The position numbers were made by a program, and so were the translations under genes. The notes under the pieces were generated by a model. That model worked only from the letters and a program-made list of their open reading frames with translations, was not told the DNA's origin and searched no databases. A DNA stretch of 64,000 nucleotides from an uncultured Candidatus Berkelbacteria bacterium (GTDB taxonomy: Bacteria > Patescibacteriota > UBA1384 > UBA12157 > JAENIV01): positions 606,131 to 670,130 of the forward strand of contig OY969116.1 in the NCBI GenBank assembly GCA_963698075.1, written 5' to 3'. This document shows, in pieces, positions 38,462 to 58,079 of this stretch; within the stretch, counting starts at the first letter, position 1, and each line of letters opens with the position of its first letter.

Positions 38462-38462
38462 G

Positions 38463-42958: not shown

Positions 42959-43048
42959 GGAGAGGTGCTGGAGTGGTTGATCAGGCCGCTCTCGAAAAGC
43001 GGTAAGTCCGCAAGGGCTTCGTGAGTTCGAATCTCACCCTCTCCGCCA
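42959..43048 (+). tRNA. tRNA-Ser (anticodon CGA), type II with long variable arm
   Basis: Acceptor GGAGAGG/CCTCTCC. D-arm with GG. 5-bp anticodon stem CCGCT/AGCGG with loop CT-CGA-AA. 18-nt variable arm. T-arm GTGAG-TTCGAAT-CTCAC. Discriminator G plus CCA. Confidence 0.85.
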
Positions 43049-43109
43049 GAATTACTTTGGAACTTTTTAAGACAGTGGAAAAGGACATAAGGTTGAGAAG
43101 AAAGCAAGA

Positions 43110-43131
43110 AAGACCGTTTTGGGTCTTTTTT
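43110..43131 (+). terminator. Intrinsic terminator after the tRNA
   Basis: AAGACC-gtttt-GGTCTT followed by TTTTT. Confidence 0.55.
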
Positions 43132-43160
43132 GGTGCCAAATAGGGCTATTTTTAAATGAT

Positions 43161-43184
43161 AGAGGAAGGGATTCGAACCTTTGC
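43161..43184 (-). other. tRNA 3'-half-like fragment (T-arm GGTTCGAATCC + acceptor-like CCTCT) on the opposite strand; possible att-site remnant
   Basis: Minus strand reads caaaGGTTCGAATCCcttcctct. It lies between tRNA-Ser and the 3' end of the serine recombinase gene. Confidence 0.35.
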
Positions 43185-43231
43185 TTTAACCATAAAAGGC
43201 TCCGTAGTTTGGAACCTTTCGCTAATATTGC

Positions 43232-44593
43232 CTATTGTTTGATGATAACTTGCTTATCTTGTAGGTAAATTGTTGTATTCAGGCAGCCGATTAGCTCTCT
43301 TTTTTGTTCCTTGGTGCCTTCTTGAAAGATGTATTTGATAAAATCAGGCGGAATGAGCTCATTTTCTGATTGATCGATGTTTTGTCCTTCTAAAGTACGC
43401 TTAATCAGCATAATTTTATCTAATTCCGGTTTTAAGATTGGTTTAACTTCGACTTCTTGGATTGGTGCCTGTTTTAGGTGTTCGGTTAGCTGTTCTACGA
43501 GCTTTTCTTCTCTGATATACGGTTCGGAACAGTCAAAATCATTAAATTGAGTGCAGTGATAGTAAATATATCTTCTTTTGGTCCCACTACTGAAGTTTCG
43601 AGTAATCTCCTGGGCTGTGATCCCCGAGTTGCACGAGCCACATTTGAATAATCTAGTGAAATCAAATTGTTTGGTACCAGGTTTTGATTTCGGCGGGACA
43701 ACCATTTTCTTCTGTACCGCATCAAATAACTCCTTGGAGATAATTGGTTCGTACGAACCTTTGTACCATTTGCCATCGTATGTAAAAAAGCCGGAATAAT
43801 ATGGATTATTAAGCATTTTATAGATAACACTCAGCGTTAATACCTTACCGTTTCGAGATCTAAAATTAGTTTCGTCTTTTAACCAGTCATATATATCACG
43901 GCCCGAACAACCTTCATATGCAACTTTTTCAAATATCTGTTTAATAATCGGAGCTCTTTCTTTGTCAACAAATACCTTTTTTAACCCTTTACCCGAATAA
44001 TAATCATTTAGATAGCCTAAAGGTGCAAAATTCGGTCTAAATCCCATCTCACACTTGGTTTTCTGACCTCTTTTAACATTAATGCCCCTGTTATCGTTTT
44101 CAAGTTTGGCTTGAGAGCAAAGAATCATTAAAAGGAACTTGTCATTTGGTGAATTGGTGAAAATTTGACCATGAGTTCTGATTTCCTTCAAATAGCCATT
44201 ATCCATCAAATCGATTATCGAGCCCAAATCTCCGGCATTTCGGCTTAATCTGTCCGGTGCCCAGCTCAATATCCCTTGAAACAAACCATTTTTGATATCG
44301 ACTATTAATTGATTCAAGACTGGTCTCATGCCGGTCGCTTTAGCCGAATGACTTTCTCTTCTAATATCAGTTACCAAAAGACCCTCATTTTGTGCCTGAA
44401 CGGCCATTTCTCTTATCTGGGAATCAATTGAAAGGGCCTGCCGTTCATCGTCTTCGCTGCTTTTTCGAGCGTAAAGACAGTAACGAACAGCCGCTTTTTG
44501 GGCTTCTGGGGCTTGAATTGGCTTGCCGTTTTGCTCCTTAGGTAGTAGAAGCGGCGAAGTATTGGTTAAATTTACTCCTTGGGGACTCATCAT
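43232..44593 (-). CDS. Large serine recombinase (integrase)
   Basis: N-terminal resolvase domain with catalytic-Ser region AVRYCLYARKSSEDDERQALSIDSQ. A recombinase domain and a C-terminal zinc ribbon (CGSCNSG...C). 453 aa. Adjacent to tRNA-Ser. Confidence 0.75.
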   Translation of the reverse strand: MMSPQGVNLTNTSPLLLPKEQNGKPIQAPEAQKAAVRYCLYARKSSEDDERQALSIDSQIREMAVQAQNEGLLVTDIRRESHSAKATGMRPVLNQLIVDIKNGLFQGILSWAPDRLSRNAGDLGSIIDLMDNGYLKEIRTHGQIFTNSPNDKFLLMILCSQAKLENDNRGINVKRGQKTKCEMGFRPNFAPLGYLNDYYSGKGLKKVFVDKERAPIIKQIFEKVAYEGCSGRDIYDWLKDETNFRSRNGKVLTLSVIYKMLNNPYYSGFFTYDGKWYKGSYEPIISKELFDAVQKKMVVPPKSKPGTKQFDFTRLFKCGSCNSGITAQEITRNFSSGTKRRYIYYHCTQFNDFDCSEPYIREEKLVEQLTEHLKQAPIQEVEVKPILKPELDKIMLIKRTLEGQNIDQSENELIPPDFIKYIFQEGTKEQKRELIGCLNTTIYLQDKQVIIKQ

Positions 44594-44793
44594 TACTCCT
44601 TAAACCTCTAGGTCAAGGGAGATGATACCGCCCATGTTGGGGAAGTCAAGGCCTAATTTTTAAAATCAACCAAAATGTCCACAAACCAGTAAAAAGCTTC
44701 CCAAATGACTTTAGCTATGCTAAAATCAGAGTAGTTTCAGAAATACCTTAAAAATCGCCTAAATCTCGCTTTTGCGGGACATGGCTCACAAAT

Positions 44794-44900
44794 CACACGC
44801 AAATAAAGACGGTCTTCCGACCGCACCATTTGCGTGTGTCTGTGCCCGAAAGGGTACAGGGTAGTCCCGAAAGGGGCTGCCGCGGTTCGGGAGACCATTT
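44794..44900. ncRNA. Candidate structured RNA or recombination-site region upstream of the recombinase
   Basis: 11-bp stem CACACGCAAAT (44794-44804) / ATTTGCGTGTG (44828-44838) enclosing GACGGTC-ttcc-GACCG. Then two GNRA-type hairpins CCC-GAAA-GGG (44845-44854 and 44866-44876). No ORF is supported there. Confidence 0.25.
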
Positions 44901-44960
44901 TTGTATTTAAAAAGGTTTTTGGTCGATAACCAATAATTAAAAGTTAGAAAGGAAAAAACA

Positions 44961-45416
44961 ATGGAAAACAAGAAAAAAGGGATGTCAACTTTGGCTAAAT
45001 TAGGCATTGGTTGTGGCGGTTTTATCATCCTTATTATCATTATCGCTGTAGCTGTCGGATCAGGTAGTAAGGGTTCCAACACCCAAAAGGTAACCAATCC
45101 CGAAAAATCTTCCGGAGAGACGACTACCAATCAGTCTAAACCTGCAACTGAAAAAATGACCATTACCAACTCAAACGCCAAAGATAAGGGTTATGGCATG
45201 TGGGAAGTGGTCGGCGAAGTCAAAAACAATGACTCGATTAAACATTCAGCTTTTTTAAAAGCCACCTTCTATGGTGATAGTGGTCAAATTTTAGGGACAG
45301 CATCTGGAGCGGTAAATGATGTCACGCCAGGTGAGACAAAAACCTTCAATCTGATCAGCACTGATTCTGTCACTGGCTACAAGGAAATGAAAGTCCAAGT
45401 CGACACCCTAATATAA
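44961..45416 (+). CDS. Membrane-anchored hypothetical protein
   Basis: GGAAAAAACA-ATG. One transmembrane helix (LAKLGIGCGGFIILIIIIAVAV), a Ser/Thr/Asn-rich linker and a beta-rich C-terminal domain. Confidence 0.5.
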   Translation: MENKKKGMSTLAKLGIGCGGFIILIIIIAVAVGSGSKGSNTQKVTNPEKSSGETTTNQSKPATEKMTITNSNAKDKGYGMWEVVGEVKNNDSIKHSAFLKATFYGDSGQILGTASGAVNDVTPGETKTFNLISTDSVTGYKEMKVQVDTLI

Positions 45417-45448
45417 GAGCAGGAGTTAAATTAGCAAAGGAGTTTTTT

Positions 45449-46114
45449 ATGAAAAAGCTGATTTTGGTTTTCTTTCTTTTGATGTTTATAACCATTCCAC
45501 TTACAAATGTCAAAGCGTCAGCACCCTTCGATGGTAAAATGATTGCTTTAGACGCTGGACATGGTGGAAGCGATACTGGGGCAGTCAACGGCGCGTATGG
45601 GCTGCAGGAAAAAGATGTTAATTTAGCGGTTGTTTATGCTTTAAGAGACAAGTTAAAATCGGCAGGTGCGACTGTTGTTTTAACGCGTGAAGAGGATGAG
45701 ACGATTGTTTCGCGCAAAGAACGGATTGATATTGCTAAACAAAAATGCGCCAGTTATGGCCGAGAGTGCGATATTTTAGTTTCCATGCACCACAACGGCT
45801 CATATGACCCTAGAACAGACGGAACAATGGTTATTTATAATGAAAAACAAGACAAACCTTTAGCTTTCGCTTTGCACGATAGTTTAATAAATAGCTTGGG
45901 ATTGCCTGACTTAGGATATGAAAATGGCGGTTATGGCATTACCGTTCATGGTCATTTGGTATCGGTTTTAACGGAGGCCTATTTTATCACAAATGACTAT
46001 GAAGCCCAGCAATATCTTTCCGGTAATCGCAAAGATCAAGAAGTCCAAGCTCTTTATGATGGCATAGGTATATATTTCATAAATAAGCCAGTGAAAAAGG
46101 GCCGAACAAACTAA
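45449..46114 (+). CDS. N-acetylmuramoyl-L-alanine amidase (Amidase_3 family; probable endolysin or cell-wall amidase)
   Basis: Signal peptide. IALDAGHGGSDTGAV...E..NL.....L...L...GA.VVLTRE is the Amidase_3 (CwlC/AmiC-type) motif. Confidence 0.7.
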   Translation: MKKLILVFFLLMFITIPLTNVKASAPFDGKMIALDAGHGGSDTGAVNGAYGLQEKDVNLAVVYALRDKLKSAGATVVLTREEDETIVSRKERIDIAKQKCASYGRECDILVSMHHNGSYDPRTDGTMVIYNEKQDKPLAFALHDSLINSLGLPDLGYENGGYGITVHGHLVSVLTEAYFITNDYEAQQYLSGNRKDQEVQALYDGIGIYFINKPVKKGRTN

Positions 46115-46143: not shown

Positions 46144-47214
46144 TCAGTCCTTGATAATTTTTTCAATTTCTTTTCTGATGCCGTTACCTCGACAATGTTT
46201 TAGAATGCCAAGATAAGATTGGATACTCATCTCCAATAATTCTGCATCCAGCGAGCCGTCAAGAAACAATTGATAATTATATCGAATATTTTTTAATATC
46301 CGTCGTTTAGTTGTAGCCCGTAAGACTATATGGTGAGGAAATAGAACATATCCCAAGAAATCAATTCCCTGGGTCCATTTCTTTATATGAATTTTATGTG
46401 GATGAAGTTGCAGTAAAAGATGATTTTTTAAAAATCCTTCAAGAATAGGAATTAAACTTTCTAAATGTATTTTATCTCTACTGATAATGATGAAATCGTC
46501 TGCATATCTGACAAAACACTTAACACTTAATCCTCTTTTTACAAATTGGTCCATAGGATTCAAATAGATATTAGAGAAAAGCTGAGAAGTAAGATTGCCA
46601 AGCGGTATTCCCCGAGTCTTAAATGCAGAATTGACGCTTTCATAGCTCGTAATAATTTCTTTAAGGAGCCATAATAATTTTTTCTCCTCAATTTTTTCAG
46701 ATAATAGATCCATTAAAGCTTGATGGTCGACTGAATCAAAGAATTTTGAGATATCACATTTCAAGAACCAAACGGGTTTAGTGTTATTTTTAGATAATCT
46801 CCAAGCAAGCTTTTGGCATTTCCTAATAGCTTTATGAGTGCCTTTGTTTTTCCGGCTGGAGTAAGAATCAAAGATAAAACCTTTATCAAATAATGGTTCG
46901 ATAACCCTCATTATCGCGTGATGGAGGACCCTGTCTTTGACTTGGGCTTTGTGAATATGTCTTAGCTTCGGATCACAAATATAAAAAGAGGCATAACTTG
47001 AATGCCGATAAGACAGATTTAGGAGGTCATAATGTAAAGCAAAGATATTGTTCTCAAGGTTTATTCCGAACTCTCTTACATCTGCTTTTTTCTCTTTTCC
47101 CACCTTAAACTCTTTCCAAGCAGCAAATAAATTATTAAGTGAGATTATTTGGAGGTATAAATTATGAATAACACTTTCGCTATCAACAAATTCTTCGATA
47201 TTTCTATTATCCAT
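46144..47214 (-). CDS. Diversity-generating retroelement reverse transcriptase
   Basis: RT motifs: KPVWFLKCDISKFFDSVDH, IPLGNLTSQLFSNIYL (the DGR-diagnostic [ILV]GxxxSQ in place of QGxxxSP), RYADDFII (YADD), QGIDFLGY. 356 aa with a short thumb. It lies adjacent to Avd, TR and VRs. Confidence 0.85.
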   Translation of the reverse strand: MDNRNIEEFVDSESVIHNLYLQIISLNNLFAAWKEFKVGKEKKADVREFGINLENNIFALHYDLLNLSYRHSSYASFYICDPKLRHIHKAQVKDRVLHHAIMRVIEPLFDKGFIFDSYSSRKNKGTHKAIRKCQKLAWRLSKNNTKPVWFLKCDISKFFDSVDHQALMDLLSEKIEEKKLLWLLKEIITSYESVNSAFKTRGIPLGNLTSQLFSNIYLNPMDQFVKRGLSVKCFVRYADDFIIISRDKIHLESLIPILEGFLKNHLLLQLHPHKIHIKKWTQGIDFLGYVLFPHHIVLRATTKRRILKNIRYNYQLFLDGSLDAELLEMSIQSYLGILKHCRGNGIRKEIEKIIKD

Positions 47215-47532
47215 AAGACCTATAAATTCTATTTACATTTATATTCGGTTAATCAAACCTTGCCCAAAAAAGATCGTTATGGTTTAGGTCTGAAAACGGA
47301 AAATTTAGCGATGCAAATGCTCGAAATGCTTTTTGAAGCCAATGCTAAATCCGGAAGCCAAAGGGTTGAGATGCTAAACAAAATAGATTTGAAACTTAAA
47401 GTTTTACAGACCGTTATCCGACTTTGCTGGGAAGCAAAAGCGCTTGATGAAAATAAGTACATAAAACTACAAGAGCTTTTACAGGAAATCGGAAAAATGC
47501 TCGGTGGTTGGATCAAAGCAACCAAAATGTAA
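47164..47532 (+). CDS. avd: DGR accessory variability determinant (Avd, four-helix-bundle protein)
   Basis: YSVNQTLPKKDRYGLGLKTENLAMQMLEMLFEAN...LQELLQEIGKMLGGWIKA aligns with Bordetella phage bAvd (YPIAQSIPRKHGVAREMFL...IAEVGRILGSWIAR). GGAGG RBS. It is on the opposite strand to the RT and overlaps its 5' end by about 50 nt. Confidence 0.75.
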   Translation: MNNTFAINKFFDISIIHKTYKFYLHLYSVNQTLPKKDRYGLGLKTENLAMQMLEMLFEANAKSGSQRVEMLNKIDLKLKVLQTVIRLCWEAKALDENKYIKLQELLQEIGKMLGGWIKATKM

Positions 47533-47557: not shown

Positions 47558-47681
47558 GACTTCGGGAGAAGGAAACGCCGAGATTGTCATTCCGATTGTC
47601 AGGTTCATTCGCATTGACATTGACACCATCAGACTTGAAGTTGCCGACATTGACGAGCTTGCCCTCAGAGTTCCGACGTTT
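47558..47681 (-). repeat. DGR template repeat (TR), template sense on the minus strand
   Basis: 124 bp, homologous to VR1 and VR2. In template sense it encodes Asn-rich KRRNSEGKLVNVGNFKSDGVNVNANEPDNRNDNLGVSFSRS (AAY codons). It is not within a gene. Confidence 0.85.
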
Positions 47682-47968: not shown

Positions 47969-48937
47969 TCAACGACTGCGGGAGAAGGAAACGCCGAGAG
48001 CGCCACCCCGATCGCCAGGTCCATCCGCATCGACACAGACACCATCAGACCCGAAGCCGCCGACACCGACGAGCCCGCCCCCAGAGTTCCGACGACCAGT
48101 CCAAGAATAAATATTTTCTAGTAATCTTTGCTCATTATTTTCACGGTACATTATAAGGTCATAGAGAGCCTCTACCGGTTTTTGTCGTGTTAATTCAGTA
48201 ATTTTAAGCGCCTCTAGTCGTGCAGCTGCCTCTTTCCAATCAGAATCGATTAAACGCTCAATTTCCGAACGTTTGCCATTAAATTCTTCAACGGCTTCCT
48301 GAAATTCTTTTGGCAATGCACCACCCGGAAACGCCTGATTAAGATAGCCTATAATAGTATCTGTCTGTTCGAGATAGTTTTTACTTGTAGAATCGGGAAT
48401 AACTTCTTTGGAAGTAAGCGCCCATTCCATTTGTGGTGTTTCTTCGGTAAAAAATTTCTCGCCTTTATACCAATCAGTATCGTAGAGAACTTTTTCGTCC
48501 CTTCCTTCAAAACGAGCCGAAAGAAGACCCTCCATGCGTTCCATAGTCAGCGGGCTACCGTCAAGGTCACAATTTGCTCTTAAAACTAAGAATTGACCCA
48601 ACCCCTTCGCTTTTTCGAGTTCAGTTGCACTAAAAGGAATACTGGGGACTTCGGCGGAATTTATTTTTATCCCGAATGCCTTTTCGACTTCTTCTGGGCC
48701 CAGGCAATCACTACCTAAAATTTCTTTAGCTTTTTCAACCTGTTTGGCAATCTCACCACCCAATTCCGGTTCGGAAGTTATCCCAAATAGCCCTTTCAAT
48801 TCAAGAGCTTTTTGCAGAATCGCTTCATAGTCGGCGTCGGTCCTAGCACGACTTCGAAGTACAGTGATTTCTTTAGCAATTGTTATGCCTTGTGTCTCTT
48901 TTTCAGCGTCTTCTGGAGTTGGACCAAATTCGCTCAT
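47969..48937 (-). CDS. DGR target protein 1 (C-type-lectin/FGE-like C-terminal domain carrying VR1)
   Basis: C-terminus ..NIYSWTGRRNSGGGLVGVGGFGSDGVCVDADGPGDRGGALGVSFSRSR* matches the CLec VR pattern (..RGGSW...PDNRN..GFR). The body is paralogous to the C-terminal 250 aa of target 2. Confidence 0.75.
   Translation of the reverse strand: MSEFGPTPEDAEKETQGITIAKEITVLRSRARTDADYEAILQKALELKGLFGITSEPELGGEIAKQVEKAKEILGSDCLGPEEVEKAFGIKINSAEVPSIPFSATELEKAKGLGQFLVLRANCDLDGSPLTMERMEGLLSARFEGRDEKVLYDTDWYKGEKFFTEETPQMEWALTSKEVIPDSTSKNYLEQTDTIIGYLNQAFPGGALPKEFQEAVEEFNGKRSEIERLIDSDWKEAAARLEALKITELTRQKPVEALYDLIMYRENNEQRLLENIYSWTGRRNSGGGLVGVGGFGSDGVCVDADGPGDRGGALGVSFSRSR
47974..48097 (-). repeat. DGR variable repeat VR1
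   Basis: 21 mismatches against the TR, all at TR template-sense A positions (plus-strand T in TR becomes C, G or A). The flanking 25 nt including the stop are identical or nearly identical (IMH-like GGGAGAAGGAAACGCCGAG). Confidence 0.85.
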
Positions 48938-49023
48938 ATTTTTATTCCTTTACCTATTAAATAAAATTTGTATCGACCGCCTCCGGCGGATCAAAGCCAC
49001 AAATATCAAATAACAAAGTTACA

Positions 49024-49148
49024 GACTGCGGGAGAAGGAAACGCCGAGATCGCCACCCCGATCGCCAGGCTCAGGCGCACCGACATCGACACCATCAGAC
49101 CCGAAGCCGCCGACACCTGACGAGCCTGCCCCCAGAGCGCCGACGTTT
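49024..49148 (-). repeat. DGR variable repeat VR2 (contains a 1-nt insertion relative to TR and VR1)
   Basis: About 22 mismatches against the TR, all at template-sense A positions. There is one extra nucleotide at about 49116-49118 (plus strand caCCTga against TR caTTga). Confidence 0.8.
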
Positions 49149-51113
49149 TGTCCAGGTATAAACATTGGGAAGCAATCGCTCGCCTGTGGTTTGAAAGTAC
49201 GCCGCAAGATCATAGAGCGCTTCAGCGGGTGTTTGTCGAGTAAGCTCGGTGATTTGTAACCCTTCAAGCATTTCAGCCGCCTTTCGCCAGTCAGAAGAAA
49301 GAGTCTCAGCAATACCACCTCTTGCCTTTTGAAATTCATCAATGGCAGTCCGGTAAGCTTCAGGCAATGGACGATCTTTAAAGACTTGATTTTGTAGATA
49401 ATCGACGACCCTATCAGTTTGATCAAGATAATTTTTGCTTGTTGTCTCGGGGACTACGTCTTTTGAGACTAAAGCCCACTTCACTTCCATTTTTTCTTCG
49501 CGCAAGAATTTCTCGTCTTTATACCAGCAATCGTCTTTAAGTTTACCGGTTTTTTCGTCAAAAGCGTAAAGGAGCTTTTTTCCGTCTTTTACTTTACCGC
49601 TTAACTTTTCGTTAATTTCAGCCATAGTCATCGGCAAGCGCAAAACTAACATTTGCCCGAGCTCTTTTGCCCTCTCTAATTCTTCTTTAGAGAACGGAAT
49701 AGCCGGTGCTTCAACACTACCTTCAATACCAAAAGCATTTTTGGCTTCTTCTGGTCCAACAAAGTCTGCTCCCATGATCGTCTTAGCTTCTAAGATATCC
49801 GGCGAAAGCACCGTTTCACTGCTTCTTAAAGCTTCCTTGACAGAATCTGGAACTTCTGGTCTTGTCAATAAATCCGCAAGTTCCTTTTCGGTACGGGTTT
49901 TAGTAGTGCTTTCTGGACGGCTCGCTTGCTCGTCGAGCGTTCTTCTTCTTGTTTCGGCGGTCGGTACATAACCGACATGACGGATCAATTCCTCTAGTTT
50001 TTGTCTTTCAGTCGGAGATTCTAATTTATTAAGATAGTAATATCTTAAGGCGGTTTGGACGGTATCATTAATATCACCACTATAGAAACGCAGGACGAAA
50101 TCTCTGACCCGTCGGGGTTCCATGCGGTCATCGAAGGTAAAAGGTTGAGGTTGATCAGCACCTACTTTTCGTTCTTTGACCATTTCTTTGGCTGCACGAT
50201 GGAATTCTTGATACTTTTGCAGAACCTCCTGCATTCCTGGTATTTCGGCCAATGCTTCTGGTGAAAGTTTATTCTCTCTTGAAACAAGAAAGGATTTTTC
50301 CGATACTTCTTCGGTGGTTTGAACCAAACCAAAAAGAGCTTCAGTTGAATAATTAAAAGTGTCGGGTGGTAAATCAGTGACTTCTTTTTGATAAACCCAA
50401 CGACGAAGTTGAGCTGGATCGAGTGGCTCTCGACCGAAATAACCCTTGCCAGGCGGGTTCATAAAAGCGACAATTTTAGTTTTTTGTTTGCTGACCTCAA
50501 CTGATTCCGAGGCGTCTTCAGAAAGAACGACCTCGCCGTTTCTTTCTATCGCGTCTAAAACCTCATGCAAACGAATTAAAATGTTAGGGGCAGCGGCATT
50601 GATTTCGTCTAAAACAACTACTTTGGTTTTACCTTCCTCTTGTCTTAAACCGGCGGTGACTCGGCCATCGGCAAAAACATATTCTGGATCGTCTGGTTTG
50701 GTTCGGTGAGGATTAGGAATATAACGACCCATCAGGTCCTCAACATCGGTCGCGCCGTTCAAGTTGGCATAATGGACCTCCCAACCAAGCTCTGAACACA
50801 TTTTCCTGGCGGTGGTTGTTTTACCGACACTTGTGCCGGCCTCTACTAAGATCGGGTCTCCCTCTAACCAACTAACAGCTATCTTTTGTTGCAGTTCTAA
50901 GGCGAAACGATCACTAATATAATCTTGGTATTGCTCACGCTTGGGTGTAAATTCAGAAGTAGTTTTGGCTTTTTCTAAACGCACACCCAAATAAGAGACG
51001 GCAGTTTCGTCTTCTTGGACAGGCCGGCGAGTTTCGGGGTTGACCCGGGTCTGACTAACGGTCTCTTCCGATTCCGAAGCCGGATTAAAGTTAGATTCTG
51101 GTGAATTTGGCAT
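49095..51113 (-). CDS. DGR target protein 2: MoxR-like AAA+ (AAA_5) ATPase fused to a CLec-like domain; C-terminus frameshifted inside VR2
   Basis: Walker A ILVEAGTSVGKTTTARKM, Walker B KVVVLDEINAA, NPPGKGYFGREPLDPAQLRRW (MoxR/AAA_5 signature). The C-terminal 250 aa are paralogous to target 1. The reading frame ends TWTKRRRSGGRLVRCRRLRV*, whereas the alternative frame (ORF 49019-49426) continues ..GVGGFGSDGVDVGAPEPGDRGGDLGVSFSRSL* as in target 1. Confidence 0.7.
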   Translation of the reverse strand: MPNSPESNFNPASESEETVSQTRVNPETRRPVQEDETAVSYLGVRLEKAKTTSEFTPKREQYQDYISDRFALELQQKIAVSWLEGDPILVEAGTSVGKTTTARKMCSELGWEVHYANLNGATDVEDLMGRYIPNPHRTKPDDPEYVFADGRVTAGLRQEEGKTKVVVLDEINAAAPNILIRLHEVLDAIERNGEVVLSEDASESVEVSKQKTKIVAFMNPPGKGYFGREPLDPAQLRRWVYQKEVTDLPPDTFNYSTEALFGLVQTTEEVSEKSFLVSRENKLSPEALAEIPGMQEVLQKYQEFHRAAKEMVKERKVGADQPQPFTFDDRMEPRRVRDFVLRFYSGDINDTVQTALRYYYLNKLESPTERQKLEELIRHVGYVPTAETRRRTLDEQASRPESTTKTRTEKELADLLTRPEVPDSVKEALRSSETVLSPDILEAKTIMGADFVGPEEAKNAFGIEGSVEAPAIPFSKEELERAKELGQMLVLRLPMTMAEINEKLSGKVKDGKKLLYAFDEKTGKLKDDCWYKDEKFLREEKMEVKWALVSKDVVPETTSKNYLDQTDRVVDYLQNQVFKDRPLPEAYRTAIDEFQKARGGIAETLSSDWRKAAEMLEGLQITELTRQTPAEALYDLAAYFQTTGERLLPNVYTWTKRRRSGGRLVRCRRLRV

Positions 51114-51120: not shown

Positions 51121-51525
51121 TTAAATTCGATAAGTTAAACCAACTCGTTCCAAAATATTATAATTGATACTAATGTTTTTAAGTATTTCATCGGTAGTCA
51201 AAAAGATAATACCTGTGTCTTGGTATTCTACTGAGTAAACCGTTGGTTGCATCGTATCGTGGTCAAAAAACTCAATTTGCCCCGTGGGATACTGAACTAT
51301 AAAATCATACTCTGGTTTAATGTCGCTACCCAACACTAAGAAATTTCTCTTATTATTTTTAATATTTTGCGCTAACTGGATAGCAGATTTAGATTCTATA
51401 AAATTTTCTTTTTTAAAGATTTCTTGGAATTCTTTTAATTCAGATTCATTACGAGCAATTGCCAAAGAAATCTCTTTTTGGCCTATTGTTAAATTTAAAA
51501 ATTGCTGAAACTTTTTTGTATCCAT
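51121..51525 (-). CDS. Hypothetical protein co-operonic with the AAA+/vWA genes
   Basis: 134-aa ORF between the vWA gene and the AAA+ target, with an 8-nt gap to the downstream gene. Confidence 0.45.
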   Translation of the reverse strand: MDTKKFQQFLNLTIGQKEISLAIARNESELKEFQEIFKKENFIESKSAIQLAQNIKNNKRNFLVLGSDIKPEYDFIVQYPTGQIEFFDHDTMQPTVYSVEYQDTGIIFLTTDEILKNISINYNILERVGLTYRI

Positions 51526-51538: not shown

Positions 51539-53605
51539 TCAAAATTTATCATAGTTAGCAATTACTTCGCGAATCAGATCGGCTAACTTTTCAGCCATTT
51601 CTTTAATGTTGACATCGGCTAAGCTATTAGGATAATATCTTTCAACATGTTTAGTACCGGGACCGATTCCTAAACCAATCAATTTTTGATTGGTTTCACT
51701 TAATATCCTTTGGACCATTTTTCCTAAATCGTACGTTGCTCGTGGGTGCATGAGTGACTCTTCGGGTCTGCCGTCTGATAAAACGATTAGGAATTTTTCG
51801 GCAGCCTTTTGTCTATTCAGTCTTTCCGAAGCCCGCTCTAGTGCCCAACCGTCGTCGTTCCATCGAGCCTTGCCCGTATCGCTCGTGTCGCTAACTTCCT
51901 GAAGCATGCCGCCCATATTCTCTCTGATGGAACTGGCCATTGGCTCCCCGAAGCTTTGATATTCATAAATACGATCATTAAAACCGAGTATCTCAGTTTG
52001 TATGGATAGACGGTTTAGAACTTCAGCAAGCACAATCACCGCCTTAAATGTCTCGTCGATTTTTTCACCCTGCATTGAGCCAGAAAGATCAGCTAGAAGT
52101 GTAATCGCATAATCTTTTTCTGCAGGCAACTCACGTCGTTCCCAGGCCTTACTTTCCATTGCTGGTATGCCTTTAGCTTTTTCTTGGATTCTCTTTTTAA
52201 TATCAATTCTTTTACCAGTGCGAAAACCGCCATCCCATTGATGGGCACGCCTGGCAACGAACAACTCTCTTAAATCTTGCTCCAGCTGGTCAATAATCGG
52301 CAAAACTTCTCGGCGATATCGCTCGTAGATATTAGCGTCTTTTTTAAGTTCTTTGGCTACCAATTCTCGATATTTTCTGATTTCTTCAGATTCTTCTGGT
52401 CTCGTAGGAGGAGGTCCTTCAGAGACTTTTGGACGTTCGGAAATTTCTTCGGTTGCTCTATCGGCCTTCTTTTCGGGATCATCCGATAACTTGCCTCCTA
52501 TTTCTTCATTCAGTTCTTTTTCAAAATCTTTAAGTGCCGCTTCGGCTTTTTCCTGCAGTTCTTTTTTCTTTTCTTCTGGCAAAGAATCGATATAATCTTG
52601 TATTTTTTGCTTTAGCTCTTCGGAGAATGAGTCCATATCTATCGGCATAGGTTGACCTTCTGCCTGTTGCTTTTGCGCTTCCTCCAAAGCTTTTTTGATT
52701 GCCTCTTCAAGAGTTTTTTGTTCTTCAGGCGTTAATTTATCCGTTAGCTCTTGTGGTTGACCTTGACCTTCACTCGTGGCTTGTTCCATCTCTTTTAATA
52801 ACTCTTGGGTTTGCTGGTCTTCCATATCTTTTTCAACCAGTTTTTTGAATTCTGGCCAAACCCGATCTCTATTAATTTCATACGATCTTTCTGCATACCG
52901 ACTGATTAATTCTTCGCTTTTATCAGCTTCGGCTCTTGAAGGATACCGCCACCAAGAATCTCTGGCTGATTCCAAAGTAGTCGAGACAACGACTTTGACG
53001 TCTTCTGGCAAATCTTCAGAGATTTTTATTTCTTCACCTCTGATTTCTCCAAACCATTGTCTAATATATTCATATCCCGCCTGCATAAACTTGGGTTTGC
53101 GTCCAAGTTTATCTTGAGCTTCTTCGCTCATTTTACTCTGCGATTCAAAAAATTTTCCCCATGCAATATCAACATTTTCTTGATATTTTGGATAACTTTC
53201 AGCCACAAAATTATCACTCCTTGGATCTTCAATAAAGTTTGACATCGCCGAAAATCCAGGCTGTTGCCATACTTCCAAAGGAATAAATTCCGTTCTACTT
53301 ACCCTGCGATGGCCGCCTTCATGGCAGATTAGATAACGAAGTTCGTCAATCGGTTTTTCCAAAAGATCTTTGGGATCTATCCGGATTTTGTTTTCCTTAA
53401 AATCCCAATGCCAACCCTTTCCTGGTTCGTTCAATTCGACTGGAATTCTAAAATCTTTGCCGATAAAAAAGGCAAGTGATGATAGAATTTGTCTTTTCCT
53501 TTCAATCTCCGCAAGATCAGATTCAGTGAATTCAGGGTTAGATTCTGGCTGTTCAGTTCCTCCTAGATAATCCTCTGTTGAATTGTATGTTTCCGGATTA
53601 GCCAT
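51539..53605 (-). CDS. vWA-domain protein with N-terminal HExxH metallopeptidase-like motif
   Basis: LICHEGGHRRVS (HExxH). Acidic coiled-coil middle. C-terminal vWA with MIDAS DLSGSM (DxSxS) and ..VLSDGRPEE. The usual partner of a MoxR AAA+ ATPase. Confidence 0.65.
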   Translation of the reverse strand: MANPETYNSTEDYLGGTEQPESNPEFTESDLAEIERKRQILSSLAFFIGKDFRIPVELNEPGKGWHWDFKENKIRIDPKDLLEKPIDELRYLICHEGGHRRVSRTEFIPLEVWQQPGFSAMSNFIEDPRSDNFVAESYPKYQENVDIAWGKFFESQSKMSEEAQDKLGRKPKFMQAGYEYIRQWFGEIRGEEIKISEDLPEDVKVVVSTTLESARDSWWRYPSRAEADKSEELISRYAERSYEINRDRVWPEFKKLVEKDMEDQQTQELLKEMEQATSEGQGQPQELTDKLTPEEQKTLEEAIKKALEEAQKQQAEGQPMPIDMDSFSEELKQKIQDYIDSLPEEKKKELQEKAEAALKDFEKELNEEIGGKLSDDPEKKADRATEEISERPKVSEGPPPTRPEESEEIRKYRELVAKELKKDANIYERYRREVLPIIDQLEQDLRELFVARRAHQWDGGFRTGKRIDIKKRIQEKAKGIPAMESKAWERRELPAEKDYAITLLADLSGSMQGEKIDETFKAVIVLAEVLNRLSIQTEILGFNDRIYEYQSFGEPMASSIRENMGGMLQEVSDTSDTGKARWNDDGWALERASERLNRQKAAEKFLIVLSDGRPEESLMHPRATYDLGKMVQRILSETNQKLIGLGIGPGTKHVERYYPNSLADVNIKEMAEKLADLIREVIANYDKF

Positions 53606-53697
53606 ATTTGACTCTAATCTAATATTAACTAATAATCCCTAACTTTTCAATCTGAATTTTAGAGATTATTAAGACGAAAGGAGCCAAATCCTAATTT

Positions 53698-54591
53698 CTA
53701 AAATTCATTGTTAAAACCCAATCCTCGGCCATGATTAGCAAATAATTCTTTGGTTTCCTTGTCAATAAAATCTGCTAAATCCTTGCGAGTTTTCCTACGA
53801 GGAATCATACCTGTGATGCCCCTGTTATTAATGCCTATTCTTTTTACAACCATAAAGGATGTCTGCTGATCATTTTTTTCTATTATCTTTAAGATTAGCA
53901 CCGTAAACGCATCGACCAAATCATTGTGTTTGGTTACGCCAAAATTAAGTAGCTGATCGATAAGTTGGTCAGCGCCCTTTTCCGGAAACAATATCCATTT
54001 ATTGAATATCCAAGTTGCAGCCATCTCAAGTCGCGCTCGCTTATCCATGCCATGAATTTGCAAACCCTCAGCCCGAAAACAGCTTTCGCGGAGAAGCTGG
54101 GTCAAATATCCTTGAAGCATCACCTCCTCGACATAAATCGAGGTTGAATACCGACCGAAACTCTTGGCGATTATTTTAATCTTTTCGATAGTCTGGGGAA
54201 TTTGCATCCGCTCGTTAATCGGATTCGGCAAAATATATATTCTTTTTTCATCGCCTGAGCCGATAATCATACAGGAAACGATGGCAGTGTAATCGGCGCT
54301 GTCTTTTTCGCTTATTGCCAGGTCAACTCCCAAGGCATATTCGTAATGCTGTCCTCTAAGAGGTTGGGGCAAGTCTCGGTAATACCCAATCCAATCTCTT
54401 GAAATAATTGGCTCGCGATTGTCAATGATTTTTAGGAGGTATTCGCGGCTCCAAGTAAACTTATTGCCGATCTTTTTTCTTTTCTTTTTCAACCGCTTCA
54501 AGATTAGGGAATTTTCCGGGCCACATGACGGTCCCGTTATCGGTAACGATCGGATATTCCTTGTATACTCCGCTTCGAATGCCTTCGGCAA
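53698..54591 (-). pseudogene. Large terminase subunit, C-terminal nuclease domain, separated from the ATPase domain by a frameshift
   Basis: RNase-H-like terminase nuclease motifs (..GDEKRIYILPNP.., KHNDLVDAF). It overlaps the ATPase ORF by 131 nt in another frame within an A/T homopolymer-rich stretch (ttttttcttttctttttc, 54470-54490). Confidence 0.5.
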
Positions 54592-55282
54592 TTTCGTTTT
54601 TTAGTCGCATAAGGAGACAATCGCTATGCAAAATATTTCCGGTTATAACAACCTTCGTGTTTTTATCTCCGAGCGGCAGAATTTCGCTCGTAAACCAATC
54701 GTAAGTGGCGTCTCTACCCTCTTGTGTTTTCACGCTCGAAAGGTCGTCTGGATCGTCTACGACCACCAAATCCGGACGGTATGCTCCGTGTTTAATGCCG
54801 CGAATAGCCTGCTCTTTAGAGGCAACGATTATACGGGCCTTGTAATTTTTAATGAAGATTGTTTGAGCATTCCATTCATCACTTTCGTCTCTAAATGGCC
54901 CCAAGTCTTCTTTAAGAAGATCGTTGGTTGCCAATTCGTTTTTGAGATTTTTAAAATGCAAGGCAGCCTGTTCTTTAACCTGGCTAACAATCAAGATGAA
55001 TTTTTTGGATTGAACACCTAAGATTCCCCATATCGGGTAACTCAGTGTATTGATCACGCTCTTGCCTGAATTTCTGAAGGCGCACAAGACGACAAGGGGA
55101 ATTGACTGGTCTTCGGTTAAAGCAAATATCACTTTTTGAAACATTGCAGTTTTGTACTTTAAATAGCGGCTAAAATATACGCTGAAGAATACCTCATGAT
55201 TTTCTCTTGTCAGTGCAATTCTTGTGGCTTTGTCTTTTTTAATGTAATCAAACAAGTTATTTTTTCTTTTTTTGCGTTTCAT
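54461..55282 (-). CDS. Large terminase subunit, N-terminal ATPase domain
   Basis: Walker A CAFRNSGKS, Walker B/coupling LVVVDDPDD and VVITGN. Confidence 0.55.
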   Translation of the reverse strand: MKRKKRKNNLFDYIKKDKATRIALTRENHEVFFSVYFSRYLKYKTAMFQKVIFALTEDQSIPLVVLCAFRNSGKSVINTLSYPIWGILGVQSKKFILIVSQVKEQAALHFKNLKNELATNDLLKEDLGPFRDESDEWNAQTIFIKNYKARIIVASKEQAIRGIKHGAYRPDLVVVDDPDDLSSVKTQEGRDATYDWFTSEILPLGDKNTKVVITGNILHSDCLLMRLKNEIAEGIRSGVYKEYPIVTDNGTVMWPGKFPNLEAVEKEKKKDRQ

Positions 55283-55706
55283 TTTTGCTCCTTTTAGTTT
55301 TAATTAAAGAAGCCAGTTCAAGAGCTTTCTTGATACTTGCTTCTTGTTCTGGTGTTAATTTTTCGTTTTGGGTCGTGATGTTACCACTAACCTCAAGTTT
55401 ATTGGCATAGGCTTTATGCCTATGATTTAACCAATAAAATATTGCACTTATATTCTGATCTTTTATTGCTTGAAGTAGTTGACTTTCGGTTAGGTCGTTT
55501 ACTAAAGCGATGCCTTCTTGAAGTGCAAGATCGGCAGCTCTAGCGAACTTTTTATCGTGGTTGTACCAGCGATAATAAGTTTGGCGAGAAATACTAGATT
55601 TTTCGCAAGAGGCTTGGATAATTGGGATTCTCTTGAGATTTTCAATAAAGATTTCTTTTTGTTTTACTTTTCTAATTTCAATTTTTCTGGATTCACCTTT
55701 AAACAT
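55257..55706 (-). CDS. Small terminase subunit-like HTH protein
   Basis: 149 aa. HTH SISRQTYYRWYNHDKKFARAADLAL. Immediately upstream of the large terminase. Confidence 0.45.
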   Translation of the reverse strand: MFKGESRKIEIRKVKQKEIFIENLKRIPIIQASCEKSSISRQTYYRWYNHDKKFARAADLALQEGIALVNDLTESQLLQAIKDQNISAIFYWLNHRHKAYANKLEVSGNITTQNEKLTPEQEASIKKALELASLIKTKRSKNETQKKKK

Positions 55707-55714
55707 TGATACTC

Positions 55715-56488
55715 CTAACTAATCTTCGTCGCTTTAAGACCGGTCACTTTAGCAACTCGATCAATTGCGGTTCTAACATATTCGGGGTCAAGCTCGATCC
55801 CGTAGCACTTCCTTTTAACTTGTTCGGCAGCCAGAATGCTACTCCCTGATCCCAAAAATCCATCGTAAATGACATCTCCAATCCTAGAACTATTAAGTAT
55901 AAGGTTCCTTAAAAGTCCGATCGGCTTCATTGTTGGATGAAGTTTGGATTTGTTTGGTTTGGGGTAGAAGAGCAGACTCTTATCTTTTGATTTACGAAAC
56001 TCATGCGTTCCAAGCCATCCGAAGGCGACTAATTCATGCTGTGGCAAGTAATTGAGTCTACCAATTACTGGATGGCTTTTTACCCATATAAGCAATTGTG
56101 CGAACTTAAACCCTGCCTGAAGCATTCCTTCTCTTAGCGCAAAAATCATTTTGTCACTATTGAAAATGTACGCACTATTTTTTTGAGCAAGATAAGGCTT
56201 TATTGCCTCTAACCATTCTGTTGTGAATTGTCGATATTCATCGTCAGTCTGTTCTTGATCATTAAGAATCGCCTTATGTTTGTATGACTTTTGGAAGATT
56301 TGCTTGCTTTCGCTTAGAGAAACTCCGTAAGGAGGATCTATAAGCAAGATCTTAACTTTTTCATTTTCGATTAATTTTTTAATTATTTCTGGGTCTCGAG
56401 CATCCCCATTAATAATTTTATGATCACCGATTTTGAACATATCCCTATAATTAATATTATCTTTTTCCATTTGGAACTCCTTTCGCAA
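55715..56488 (-). CDS. DNA N6-adenine/N4-cytosine methyltransferase (beta class)
   Basis: Motif IV LLIDPPYGV (DPPY) precedes motif I VIYDGFLGSGSSILAAEQ. pfam01555-like. Confidence 0.7.
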   Translation of the reverse strand: MRKEFQMEKDNINYRDMFKIGDHKIINGDARDPEIIKKLIENEKVKILLIDPPYGVSLSESKQIFQKSYKHKAILNDQEQTDDEYRQFTTEWLEAIKPYLAQKNSAYIFNSDKMIFALREGMLQAGFKFAQLLIWVKSHPVIGRLNYLPQHELVAFGWLGTHEFRKSKDKSLLFYPKPNKSKLHPTMKPIGLLRNLILNSSRIGDVIYDGFLGSGSSILAAEQVKRKCYGIELDPEYVRTAIDRVAKVTGLKATKIS

Positions 56489-57767
56489 TTAATTTTGGTT
56501 TTTCACCAGTCAAGGTCTCAAAACGTTTCAATATCAGATCAACGAAGATCGGCTCTTTTTCAACCATCGCTACCTTTCTTTTTAGCTGGACCGCTGCGGA
56601 CATCACAGGGCCAGATCCAGCAAACATATCCAGAATTAAATCGCCGGGCCGCGTGCAACGCCTTAAGGGTTTTTCAAAAAGCGTAGCTGGTTTTTCTGTC
56701 GGATGCTCATAGTTTTGCCCTGCAATCCTTTTGACCATCCAGATGTCCAGTTGGTCAAGGATGTCGTCAATCTGCCGATTCCCGGTTGCAATTTGCTTGT
56801 TTAAGATTTCTGTAAGATTTGGACACTTTGGGGAGGTGTATGGCTTGCCACGTGTGCCATACGTAACTGGTTCATATGACTTATTGAATGCCACTTGAGG
56901 CGTAGGGTTAAAAGCTCCCTTTATCCAGAGACAGGTACGGACAGGCTTGATGTTCAATTTTTTATATAGCGTTTGAATCAGCCAGACATAGCTTTGGTCG
57001 GAAAAGTAAAAATAATGTGAATCTTTTTTACTGAACTTAATTGCATTTGTTATGCTCTGTTTTAAAAATTCTTTATATTCTTCGTCGCTTTTGCTATCAT
57101 CAACATGACCGCCATATGAGGATTTACCGCCAATTCCTGAATTGTAATCGAGAGAAATATTAAAAGGTGGATCGCAACACACCATGTCTGCATGCTTACC
57201 AGACATAAGTATTTCAATTGCTTTTTCATTGAGGGAATCCGCACATAAAAGTCTGTTTTCGCCTAACGAATAAAGATCACCTTCTTTTGAGGCAGGACTC
57301 TTAATTCGTTCAAGCTCTTTGTGGGCGTCAAATTCATCTTCTGAAACCTCTAAAGCATCATCAAAAATGTTCGAAATCTCAAAATCTTTAAATCCTGCTT
57401 CCAAAACTACATCGATATCAAAGCTTCTTAATAAATCATAATCCCATGAGCCATTCGAAATGTTCATTTTCAGTAAAATATCTTTTTCTTTTTTTGGATC
57501 GCTAACACAGATTCTAACCACCGGAACTTTCTGAAGTTTAAGTCTTTGTGCAGCCACAAGTCTCAAGTTACCCGAAAGCACTATATTCTCTCGATCTGGA
57601 GCAGAATTGACTATCAGAGGGTTTATAATCCCGTGGTCTTTGAAACTTCCCATTACTTTCTGGATTTCCTGCTCGCCGAATGTTCGGGGATTTCCAGGGT
57701 AGAATTTAAGTGATTTTACATCGACATATTCGATGGAAATTTTCTCTTTCAATTTTTCTTTGTTCAT
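56457..57767 (-). CDS. ParB-like nuclease domain fused to a DNA methyltransferase
   Basis: N-terminal ParB/Srx YPGNPRTFGEQEIQKVMGSFKDHGIINPLIV. MTase motif IV CCDPPFNI and motif I ILDMFAGSGPVMSAAVQ. Confidence 0.7.
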   Translation of the reverse strand: MNKEKLKEKISIEYVDVKSLKFYPGNPRTFGEQEIQKVMGSFKDHGIINPLIVNSAPDRENIVLSGNLRLVAAQRLKLQKVPVVRICVSDPKKEKDILLKMNISNGSWDYDLLRSFDIDVVLEAGFKDFEISNIFDDALEVSEDEFDAHKELERIKSPASKEGDLYSLGENRLLCADSLNEKAIEILMSGKHADMVCCDPPFNISLDYNSGIGGKSSYGGHVDDSKSDEEYKEFLKQSITNAIKFSKKDSHYFYFSDQSYVWLIQTLYKKLNIKPVRTCLWIKGAFNPTPQVAFNKSYEPVTYGTRGKPYTSPKCPNLTEILNKQIATGNRQIDDILDQLDIWMVKRIAGQNYEHPTEKPATLFEKPLRRCTRPGDLILDMFAGSGPVMSAAVQLKRKVAMVEKEPIFVDLILKRFETLTGEKPKLIAKGVPNGKR

Positions 57768-58079
57768 TTTTACTCCTTTCGTTACTTGTCGCGTCTTTTA
57801 ACAAAAAAGGCGCGATTTGCAAACAAAAAATTACCTTTCGGTAAATTTTCATTTGAAACTCGCGCCTTAAAAGCGTCGATCTCAAACGTAGATTATTAAA
57901 TTTTTTAACTGTTTGTTGCTTTACGCAACTACAATCTTATTATAAAGTATCCATCTAATTTGTCAAGCTCCAGTAATCAACCATTCCCTGTTTACCAATG
58001 GCTCTTCAGGTGATATATTTATGATGATAGATTATAAACAACACAGATTTAACTTTTACCACAAATAAAAAAGATCAAT

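Follow-up and report, generated by a model that had tools for sequence, protein, structure and literature searches.

What has entered the chromosome behind the tRNA-Ser(CGA) gene of an ultra-small bacterium, where does it end, and is it the wreck of a prophage or an element in its own right? The locus that raises this question lies in a stretch of 64,000 nucleotides from an uncultured Candidatus Berkelbacteria bacterium (contig OY969116.1, positions 606,131 to 670,130), called the window in what follows. The original prediction, made from the letters of the stretch, had placed here a prophage-like element of 14.8 kb that ends at 57800, and had left a choice between a degraded prophage, a satellite and a phage-derived island whose retained payload is a diversity-generating retroelement (DGR). 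All the genes that it listed are indeed present where it had put them, as confirmed by ARAGORN and by profile searches, but the right end has to be moved: the region from 43,050 to about 64,687 is one 21.6-kb integrative mobile element, including a 6.9-kb accessory region of low GC content, in the chromosome of a Berkelbacteria-like member of Patescibacteria (the candidate phyla radiation, CPR). We consider it probable that this is a phage-derived, capsid-less, satellite-like integrative element, a reading that we prefer to that of a decayed prophage. Coordinates are those of the window; values above 64,000 belong to an extension taken from an independent public contig, L172, which is identical to the window over 53018-64000 and continues for a further 2.5 kb.

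Insertion at the tRNA-Ser terminus

The left boundary is defined by three contigs of a related lineage (L173, L174 and L175), which carry no element and whose YidC protein is 84% identical to that of the window. Nucleotide homology to these contigs ends exactly at 43049, the base after the tRNA gene; this lineage has an empty site. On the other side, the host sequence resumes with a gene for a T2SSE pilus ATPase (65,412-66,503), 91% identical to a gene situated 2-4.5 kb downstream of tRNA-Ser in L173-L175. A core of seven nucleotides, CCGCCAG, occurs at both ends of the element and in the empty site, and only these 7 nt are duplicated. The duplicated attachment (att) site that the original prediction proposed to seek further downstream is thus found, at 64,681-64,687, about 690 bp beyond the end of the window; homologues of the region, which might have turned up contiguous in related genomes without a recombinase, always come with one. 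The GC content is 0.38 in the element, 0.45 in the host and 0.42 in the right flank. Because the homology breakpoint, the second core and the GC content agree, the element is delimited as 43,050-64,687; it lies about 7 kb from the replication origin (oriC), and its insertion is site-specific at the tRNA terminus.

The second core is preceded by a degenerate sequence resembling a tRNA 3' half (gctaaaaggttcaagaccccagcgtc) and followed by ttgagaac; in the empty sites, a similar ttggaaaa comes after the tRNA gene. With the right end fused to the left, the reconstructed attachment site of the free element (attP) has the arms CTAAAAGGTTCAAGAC and CTTTGGAACTTTTTAA, which are inverted, match at 11 of 16 positions and stand 11-12 nt either side of a centre within tcC|CGCCAG. 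This is the layout expected for the attP of a serine integrase (about 50 bp, with imperfect inverted half-sites and a short core, the hybrid attL and attR showing no long duplication), and it suggests that the large serine recombinase (LSR) encoded beside the tRNA gene inserted the element, with the crossover within CCGCCAG. The tRNA-Ser(CGA) gene stays intact because the crossover would fall inside its last bases. The predicted attP junction of the excised circle is AAGACCCCAGCGTCCCGCCAG joined to AATTACTTTGGAACTTTTT, and the predicted junction of the repaired chromosomal site (attB) is TCTCACCCTCTCCGCCAG joined to TTGAGAACTCAAAT. Integration at tRNA-Ser, as originally proposed, is therefore backed by an empty site in a related lineage, a 7-nt core at both ends and a pseudo-palindromic attP.

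The recombinase itself consists of the three domains PF00239 (3.9e-17), PF07508 (2.6e-15) and PF13408 (3.7e-7), all above the cut-offs, and matches the TP901-1 and A118 integrases in the PDB. Its homologues, 40-71% identical, occupy the same position in about 55 loci; a look-up of its exact protein sequence returned no record.

The closest related element, L028 (recombinase 71% identical), adjoins tRNA-Ser(GGA), with a homologous spacer running to the same CCGCCA terminus and with a homologous P arm, ggagaaaggtctagaccgacgtgtcCCGCCA, at its far junction. At 86% identity, the 191-nt direct repeat that flanks L028 was rejected as a target duplication; a P'-core-P junction from a second, mostly deleted tandem element explains it better. 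The tRNA-3'-half-like fragment that the original prediction noticed on the opposite strand is present in the window (table 1), and 19 of its nucleotides (GGTTCGAATCCCTTCCTCT) are identical to the T-arm and acceptor of the tRNA-Ser(gga) flanking L028, with no match to the adjacent tRNA-Ser(CGA). We rejected the idea that it is displaced host tRNA, as it lies on the wrong strand and matches tRNA-Ser(GGA) rather than tRNA-Ser(CGA). The fragment probably remains from an earlier target, as the related elements L028 and L046 sit at tRNA-Ser(GGA).

The same geometry recurs in six other loci, where a convergent tRNA gene (Gly, Ser, Arg and Gln anticodons) is found 160-263 nt past the LSR stop codon. 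A search for core duplications in five other tRNA-adjacent loci gave a tentative candidate in L046 only. In L002 (16880-17074), the tRNA-Gly gene by the element shows an unusual nested duplication: it stands between two partial copies of itself, one of 41 nt from its 3' half and one of 28 nt from its 5' half.

Several further repeats were considered in and around the att region. A perfect 12-nt inverted repeat, AAAATAGCCCTA, occurs at 43141-43152 (-) and 64,599-64,610 (+, in the L172 extension), 71-92 nt inside each core; the block is conserved in L004, and the repeat may be a candidate site for an accessory factor, e.g. a directionality factor. No repeat of the tRNA 3' end was found inside the window (26-nt and 15-nt patterns with up to 3 mismatches, and a repeat search), because the second att site lies past its end. 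A marginal inverted repeat, 43126-43153 versus 57803-57830, was discarded as the element termini once the real right end had been found. In the Logan assemblies of run ERR10755944, contig L172 starts at 49,021, exactly at the second variable repeat (VR2) of the DGR, and contig L176 ends at 43,048, at the junction of tRNA and att site. These breaks fit heterogeneity of the population at the hypervariable repeat and at the left att site (attL); k-mer repeats could also cause them.

The new right end invites the question of whether the locus is composite, with the recombinase element extending from 43,050 to about 57,900 and the part at 57.9-64.7 kb being an older island of separate origin at this tRNA hot spot. 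The GC content indeed falls from 0.40 to 0.33 at about 57.8 kb, and the interval between tRNA-Ser and the T2SSE gene is a hot spot, as the genes that relatives hold there vary (a 407-aa protein, an Avd-like 166-aa protein, TrmB). However, the tRNA-like P arm and core, homologous to the L028 junction, are situated at 64,65x-64,687 and not near 57.8 kb, where we found no combination of core and half-site, although the search for att-like sites inside the region was not exhaustive. Moreover, homologues of two accessory-region proteins are encoded upstream of the ParB-methyltransferase gene, on the opposite strand, in six other members of the family: that of the 363-aa protein in L055, L056, L063, L084 and L091, and that of the 794-aa protein, in the same geometry, in L062. 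Elements L028 and L056 also have 4-6 kb of element genes upstream of ParB-methyltransferase. A composite origin is thus very improbable, and we treat the whole of the att-bounded insertion as one element.

A conserved packaging core without virion genes

To which family of elements does the insertion belong? We surveyed the neighbourhoods of four relatives of its large terminase subunit (TerL), then 80 loci from a metagenome scan and 12 loci from IMG/VR, comparing the proteins of the window by tblastn; a scan of IMG/VR with a single TerL sequence gave one weak match, and the alignment-based scan succeeded. More than 1,800 relatives were found for TerL with its frameshift (see below) repaired, many of them on Patescibacteria contigs of up to 867 kb. 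About 100 Patescibacteria loci, of which 5 are genome or Logan loci, about 80 come from metagenomes and 12 from IMG/VR, share a colinear core on one strand, which comprises ParB-methyltransferase (with or without a second methyltransferase), a protein resembling the small terminase subunit (TerS), TerL, a gap of 76 nt to 7.5 kb, and the LSR; in three loci the LSR is inverted and lies upstream of ParB-methyltransferase. The minimal members (L004, L005, L020 and L021) have ParB-methyltransferase, TerS, TerL and recombinase back to back in about 5 kb. The flanking genes vary by locus, e.g. a HAD hydrolase and an F420 ligase in L006, and a restriction-modification (R-M) system and lectins in L005.

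Within this core, ParB-methyltransferase precedes TerS in nearly all family loci that extend far enough to show it, and the TerS-like gene, which overlaps the start of TerL, encodes a protein 38-62% identical at the same position in the family loci covering it. The backbone also includes a cargo slot of 0-9 kb between TerL and the recombinase, an envelope operon led by the LOOT RNA (see below) and a second variable region upstream of ParB-methyltransferase, which holds regulators and accessory genes. Among the regulators found there in relatives are, in L056, a LexA-like S24 repressor and, in L028, an XRE/ImmA pair, each of a kind typical of inducible elements.

TerL is a single intact open reading frame (ORF) in 91 of 97 loci, and the family alignment retains the lysine of the GKS Walker A motif, the DD motif and the acidic nuclease residues. 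The family profile matches T7 gp19 in the PDB; it was needed for this, phmmer with a single TerL sequence giving no PDB match. In the window, the ATPase and nuclease domains lie in different frames, as had been predicted, and both match phrog_38. They are separated by a 1-nt frameshift (one extra base) at an A6 tract, 54473-54478, and once repaired the protein aligns over 100% of its length with the intact 527-aa P0001, at 76% identity. The same frameshift occurs in the independently assembled L172 and is thus probably real in that population; on its account the window copy may be packaging-defective. Elsewhere in the family, TerL contains a single in-frame stop in four loci (L042, L067, L074 and L101), which may belong to hosts with an alternative genetic code, e.g. 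code 25 of Gracilibacteria/Absconditabacteria, and two tandem TerL genes are present in L095 (3194-6186) and L129 (3839-6746).

The PHROG profile search gave no portal, capsid or tail match in any ORF of the element, the accessory region included, in agreement with the original prediction, and no head or tail match in the ORFs that follow TerL on its own strand in relatives lacking a recombinase close by. In the positive controls L103, L104 and L106, whose TerL is 36-38% identical, TerL is directly followed by SPP1-like portal (6e-123), protease and HK97-type major capsid (1.5e-59) genes. TerL identity in IMG/VR drops abruptly, from 41-47% in loci of the same architecture to 33-40% (L102-L107) and then to 25-30%. 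Because the nearest phage TerLs lead into portal, protease and capsid genes, the family is phage-derived, and the gene order indicates that in it the morphogenesis block is replaced by the cargo slot and the integrase. The terminase is accordingly not linked to the major capsid, portal and tail genes by which a tailed prophage is recognized. Capsid-forming phage-inducible chromosomal islands (cfPICIs) have their own capsid, portal, protease and adaptors; here TerS and TerL are the only such genes present. Phage-inducible chromosomal islands (PICIs) in general are recognized by an integrase with a repressor, a primase-replicase with its origin, genes that redirect packaging (TerS/Ppi/Cpm or Rpp) and induction by a helper phage; of these features, a serine integrase and a TerS-like gene are present, regulators occur in relatives, and no primase-replicase was found.

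Could the locus nevertheless be a degraded prophage, that is, a complete temperate tailed phage that integrated at tRNA-Ser and lost its head, tail and lysis genes, leaving a non-functional remnant with some selected cargo? The integrase, an operon resembling superinfection-exclusion (sie) morons, the amidase, ParB-methyltransferase, TerS and TerL do all belong among the genes of a temperate siphophage, the nearest phage TerLs, with portal, protease and capsid genes behind them, show such an ancestry, and in the window copy TerL is frameshifted and VR2 is out of frame. However, independent decay would not yield one gene order about 100 times, in varied contexts and at only 45-55% protein identity; TerL is intact in nearly all loci, the minimal members hold the four core genes only, and no partial capsid or tail remnants were seen in any locus examined. 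With an architecture both recurrent and intact, a decayed prophage is quite unlikely. Of the three options originally offered it fits worst, whereas a satellite or phage-derived island fits best.

LOOT RNA, cargo and chromosomal setting

Divergent from the recombinase gene, the window contains a LOOT RNA (Rfam RF03000), which leads the operon of membrane-protein and amidase genes. The Rfam model was positive in five of seven related loci tested, and a covariance model built from the window and its relatives detected LOOT in 35 of 94 family sources, where with few exceptions TerL and the LSR are encoded on the other strand (e.g. L006 18753-18875, L028 15781-15901, L052 16922-17056, L056 12380-12496 and L064 2205-2318). 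It is situated 100-330 nt divergently upstream of the recombinase in the window and about 14 loci, and upstream of ParB-methyltransferase instead in compact members. LOOT is a hallmark of the element family, with a fixed position in it. The RNA comes from the collection of Weinberg et al. 2017, where it is a 'metagenomic-based RNA' (PMC7779021), and the published accounts that we examined give no function or genetic context for it. As compared with these accounts, LOOT is here tied to one element family, in which it is divergent from the recombinase gene or from ParB-methyltransferase; an orphan RNA is thereby placed in one family of mobile elements.

The small membrane protein encoded behind LOOT in the window has a weak match (E = 0.0025) to a superinfection-exclusion PHROG and possibly serves in superinfection exclusion. 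In relatives, the genes after LOOT encode zinc-ribbon and DUF4352 proteins and, in L028, an Ltp-type lipoprotein. Ltp, whose gene lies beside int in Streptococcus phage TP-J34, is a classic protein of superinfection exclusion.

The cargo slot of the window is filled by a DGR and a MoxR/vWA gene set. The DGR is genuine, with a DGR-type reverse transcriptase (RT), a template repeat (TR), variable repeats (VRs) and adenine-specific differences between them: mismatches fall on TR adenines in 24 of 25 cases for VR1, which is 82% identical to TR, and in 23 of 24 for VR2. It hypermutates the C-terminal lectin-fold domains of a MoxR-type AAA+ protein and of a stand-alone paralogue, beside a vWA partner. 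In this copy, an extra A in VR2 (a 1-nt insertion) shifts the reading frame of the variable domain of the AAA+ protein. Eight copies of the element have Avd and/or RT genes of a DGR in the slot (the window, L002, L028, L050, L052, L064, L078 and L087), and L064 has the same RT-Avd-vWA-AAA/target set as the window. The slot of L006 holds a 1,372-aa HTH-STAND NTPase between TerL and the recombinase, and in other members it holds nothing. The DGR is therefore one of many interchangeable cargoes rather than the retained payload that it had been taken for.

This set resembles the DGR-linked vWA-MoxR (VMAP) conflict systems of Kaur, Burroughs, Iyer & Aravind 2020 (PMC7159879), as well as DGR clade 2 of Patescibacteria (see below), in the MoxR AAA+ gene beside a vWA gene, in the hypermutation of a C-terminal lectin/FGS-type domain, in the organization of RT, Avd, TR and VR, and in the CPR host. 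Unlike in VMAP systems, the variable domain belongs to the MoxR ATPase and a stand-alone paralogue and not to the vWA protein. VMAP systems are ternary, a third component with an effector joining the MoxR and vWA proteins, and often have a DGR-diversified FGS domain fused to the vWA protein; in the window, a 134-aa gene sits between the AAA_5 and vWA/CobT_C genes. DGR clade 2 of Patescibacteria was classed as 'cellular-encoded' by Roux et al. 2021 (PMC8144416). In contrast to DGRs so classed, that of the window rides on a recombinase/terminase element, and this locus shows that some Patescibacteria DGRs are cargo of a mobile element, which changes the reading of how CPR DGRs spread and function.

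Given such cargo, the locus might instead be a mobile defence or conflict island, in which the terminase and ParB-methyltransferase act against invading phages, at the level of their packaging or their DNA, and not in the transfer of the element itself; the recombinase would serve only to move the island, which would be transferred otherwise, e.g. by natural transformation. Cargo of conflict type is found across the family: the DGR MoxR/vWA set in the window, the STAND NTPase in L006, the Thoeris gene ThsB-TIR with an 8xMP membrane protein upstream of ParB-methyltransferase in L056, an AlwI R-M system in the same place in L005, and the Ltp and DUF4352 proteins. The lack of a replication module would also suit such an island. 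On the other hand, PADLOC models gave no significant match in the window cargo, and a complete and conserved pair of TerS and TerL, with ATPase and nuclease motifs, finds its simplest explanation as a packaging machine. Interference, moreover, does not preclude self-packaging, as in PICIs, so that there is no necessary conflict with the satellite model. A pure defence role is in our view unlikely, and the satellite-like reading is retained.

In the accessory region, searches gave no structural or defence-library matches. An 87-nt direct repeat (79% identity), at 57957-58043 and 58636-58722, lies just upstream of the 181-aa ORF and of the DUF4238 gene; it could be a shared promoter or operator, or a small RNA. 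The features of the element and its insertion site are listed in table 1.

Table 1. Features of the element and its insertion site, in window coordinates.
Feature	Position	Strand	Evidence or remark
Host tRNA-Ser(CGA)	42959-43048	+	ARAGORN, sole tRNA in the window; 3' half is the B arm of attL
att core CCGCCAG	43043-43049	+	acceptor-stem end, discriminator, CCA, plus G
P' side of attachment region	43050-43231	-	whole length homologous to the L028 LSR-to-tRNA spacer
P' half-site TTTGGAACTTTT	43056-43067		motif search
Bidirectional terminator	about 43110-43134		P' side
12-nt AAAATAGCCCTA, inverted-repeat partner	43141-43152	-	P' side
tRNA-Ser(GGA)-like 3' fragment	43163-43188	-	T-arm/acceptor identity
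Second TTTGGAACCTTT motif	43208-43219		P' side
Large serine recombinase (integrase)	43232-44593	-	Resolvase, Recombinase and Zn_ribbon_recom; phrog_95 8e-60
LOOT RNA (RF03000)	44756-44881	+	74 bits versus gathering score 46.4; model positions 1-121 of 121
Small membrane-anchored protein, DUF4352-like moron	44961-45416	+	transmembrane segment; phrog_14275 1e-6
Secreted N-acetylmuramoyl-L-alanine amidase (Amidase_3)	45449-46114	+	Pfam 1e-33; endolysin PHROGs; signal-peptide-like N-terminus
DGR reverse transcriptase	46144-47214	-	RVT_1 2e-26
DGR accessory protein bAvd	47164-47532	+	PF22296 1.4e-19
DGR template repeat TR	47558-47678	-	repeat family D1
DGR target protein 1, 322 aa	47969-48937	-	VR1 47974-48094
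MoxR-type AAA+ (AAA_5) with DGR target domain 2	49019-51113	-	AAA_5 9e-14; ORF 49095-51113, 672 aa
VR2	49024-49144		alignment to TR
134-aa protein between AAA+ and vWA genes	51121-51525	-	no Pfam or PHROG match
vWA (CobT_C-like) protein, MoxR ATPase partner	51539-53605	-	CobT_C 8.5e-14, VWA 2.5e-7
TerL, split	53698-55282	-	ATPase ORF 54461-55282 (phrog_38 2.5e-37), nuclease ORF 53698-54591 (phrog_38 1.3e-28)
TerS-like helix-turn-helix (HTH) protein	55257-55706	-	phrog_4044 'terminase small subunit' 1.9e-6; HTH_Tnp_1_2 9e-6, below Pfam cut-off
N6/N4 DNA methyltransferase, optional second	55715-56488	-	Pfam 2.4e-30; separate gene in about 30 family loci
ParB_N-DNA methyltransferase fusion, first core gene	56457-57767	-	ParB_N and N6_N4_Mtase; phrog_498 8e-81
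Accessory region, GC 0.33	57768 to element end	+	inside the att-bounded insertion
181-aa ORF			accessory region
DUF4238 protein	58761-59675		accessory region
794-aa membrane protein	59815-62199		accessory region
127-aa HTH-like protein			accessory region
120-aa ORF			accessory region
136-aa receiver-like protein	63018-63428		accessory region
363-aa Zn-ribbon protein	63415-64506		accessory region; runs off the window
Second core CCGCCAG	64,681-64,687		L172 extension

The left part of the window is an ordinary Berkelbacteria-like CPR chromosome, with the gene order recF, dnaN, dnaA with DnaA boxes, rnpA, yidD, yidC, jag and tRNA-Ser. Paired DnaA boxes (TTATCCACA) flank dnaA at 35122-35144 and 36701-36723, and the window thus contains the chromosomal replication origin. 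This order, with the synteny of yidC, jag and tRNA-Ser, is kept in L173, L174 and L175 and in L008, a Berkelbacteria metagenome-assembled genome (YidC 67% identical) whose contig ends just after tRNA-Ser and is uninformative on the empty site. A segment of about 4.2 kb (36725-40904), which separates the dnaA upstream region from rnpA, is absent from L173 and L175, where 215 nt stand in its place. This segment, with GC up to 0.54, includes a TrmB-family regulator (37697-38461), several ORFs without a match and, at its right edge, a second TrmB-like ORF (40098-40856), and is possibly another insertion next to oriC. Further to the left, 6000-15600 is a block of 55-65% GC in a genome of about 45% GC, with genes for Hsp70/DnaK (11965-13743) and an RNase J-like protein (13881-15590) and four long ORFs without a Pfam match; horizontal transfer, unusual composition or an assembly chimera could account for it. 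A 78-nt direct repeat (81% identity), at 16558-16635 and 17390-17467, covers the 3' ends of two neighbouring genes, which are probably paralogues. In the element-free relatives, the interval behind tRNA-Ser encodes the 407-aa protein and an Avd-like (23S_rRNA_IVP) four-helix bundle of 166 aa (L173 13164-13664, L174 3942-4442), close to which there is no RT.

Comparison with known elements and implications

Phage satellites, including PICIs and Staphylococcus aureus pathogenicity islands (PICI/SaPI), P4-like elements, cfPICIs, PICI-like elements (PLE) and phage-inducible chromosomal minimalist islands (PICMI), have been catalogued by SatelliteFinder (PMC10085698), and PLE is known to use a large serine recombinase (PMC6002521). 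The elements described here are like satellites in their size of 5-22 kb, site-specific integration, phage origin, lack of a full virion set and accessory or defence cargo, and, like many PICIs, they have a TerS gene for packaging specificity. They differ from cfPICIs, which combine TerL with capsid and portal, in having TerS and TerL without capsid, portal or other head-tail genes, and from most PICIs, which use a tyrosine integrase, in their integrase of the serine type. Unlike known satellites, they have ParB-methyltransferase as a fixed core gene, the LOOT RNA, no recognizable primase or replicase, and Patescibacteria hosts.

Siphophages form the other natural comparison. The three-domain architecture of the recombinase is shared with TP901-1 and A118, the moron envelope operon beside int (with an Ltp domain in L028) has its counterpart in the ltp gene of TP-J34, and ParB-methyltransferase, TerS and TerL follow the order usual in temperate siphophages; in contrast to siphophages, the morphogenesis, tail, lysis and replication parts are missing in all family members examined. 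Phage-derived, integrase-bearing, helper-dependent islands are already known in kind. What appears to be new is that a complete terminase with no capsid is combined with a core containing ParB-methyltransferase, with the LOOT RNA, with a serine integrase that targets tRNA termini and with CPR hosts. We found no earlier description of such terminase and serine recombinase elements of Patescibacteria/CPR in the full-text literature, many subscription papers being outside its coverage, and a large element family, phage-derived, with terminase and integrase kept and capsid genes absent, is apparently undescribed.

How might such an element live? That packaging depends on a helper is inferred, and so is what the methyltransferases, the LOOT RNA and the cargo do. 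A repressor module, LexA-like or XRE/ImmA in relatives and with none identified in the window copy, would keep the element silent until induction or infection by a helper phage, upon which the recombinase would excise it as a circle. TerS and TerL would then recognize and cut the element DNA and pump it into capsids of the helper, a tailed phage. In new hosts, the methyltransferases would shield the transferred DNA from restriction, and the LOOT-led envelope genes and the cargo would benefit the host and so pay for their carriage.

Several points weigh against this satellite-like reading. No helper phage was identified, and since the nearest true phage TerLs are only 36-38% identical, it is unclear to which portal the TerL of the element would dock. 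Profile searches of the element ORFs recognized no primase-replicase or other replication gene, and neither the recombination directionality factor nor the repressor of the window copy was identified. Neither an excised circle nor an encapsidated copy was observed. With TerL frameshifted and VR2 out of frame, the window copy could be decaying, and the accessory region at 57.8-64.7 kb, with its lower GC content than the core, could be a later accretion.

A wider view of the family can be offered only tentatively, as we hold it to be somewhat less than an even chance. According to it, these elements would be CPR phage satellites, phylum-wide capsid-less hijackers with their own TerS and TerL, ParB-methyltransferase, LOOT and a serine recombinase acting at tRNA 3' ends and other sites; they would be a major spreader of DGR cassettes and conflict systems among ultra-small bacteria, and part of the 'cellular' CPR DGRs would be mobile. 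A satellite-like element with a full terminase and no capsid would be a new layout among the parasites of phages. The predicted 50-bp attP and attB may serve as serine-integrase tools. Finally, CPR bacteria make up a large share of bacterial diversity, and the movement of genes among them is almost uncharted, with few mobile elements or phages characterized; a conserved and easily recognized element thus offers a handle on horizontal transfer in CPR.

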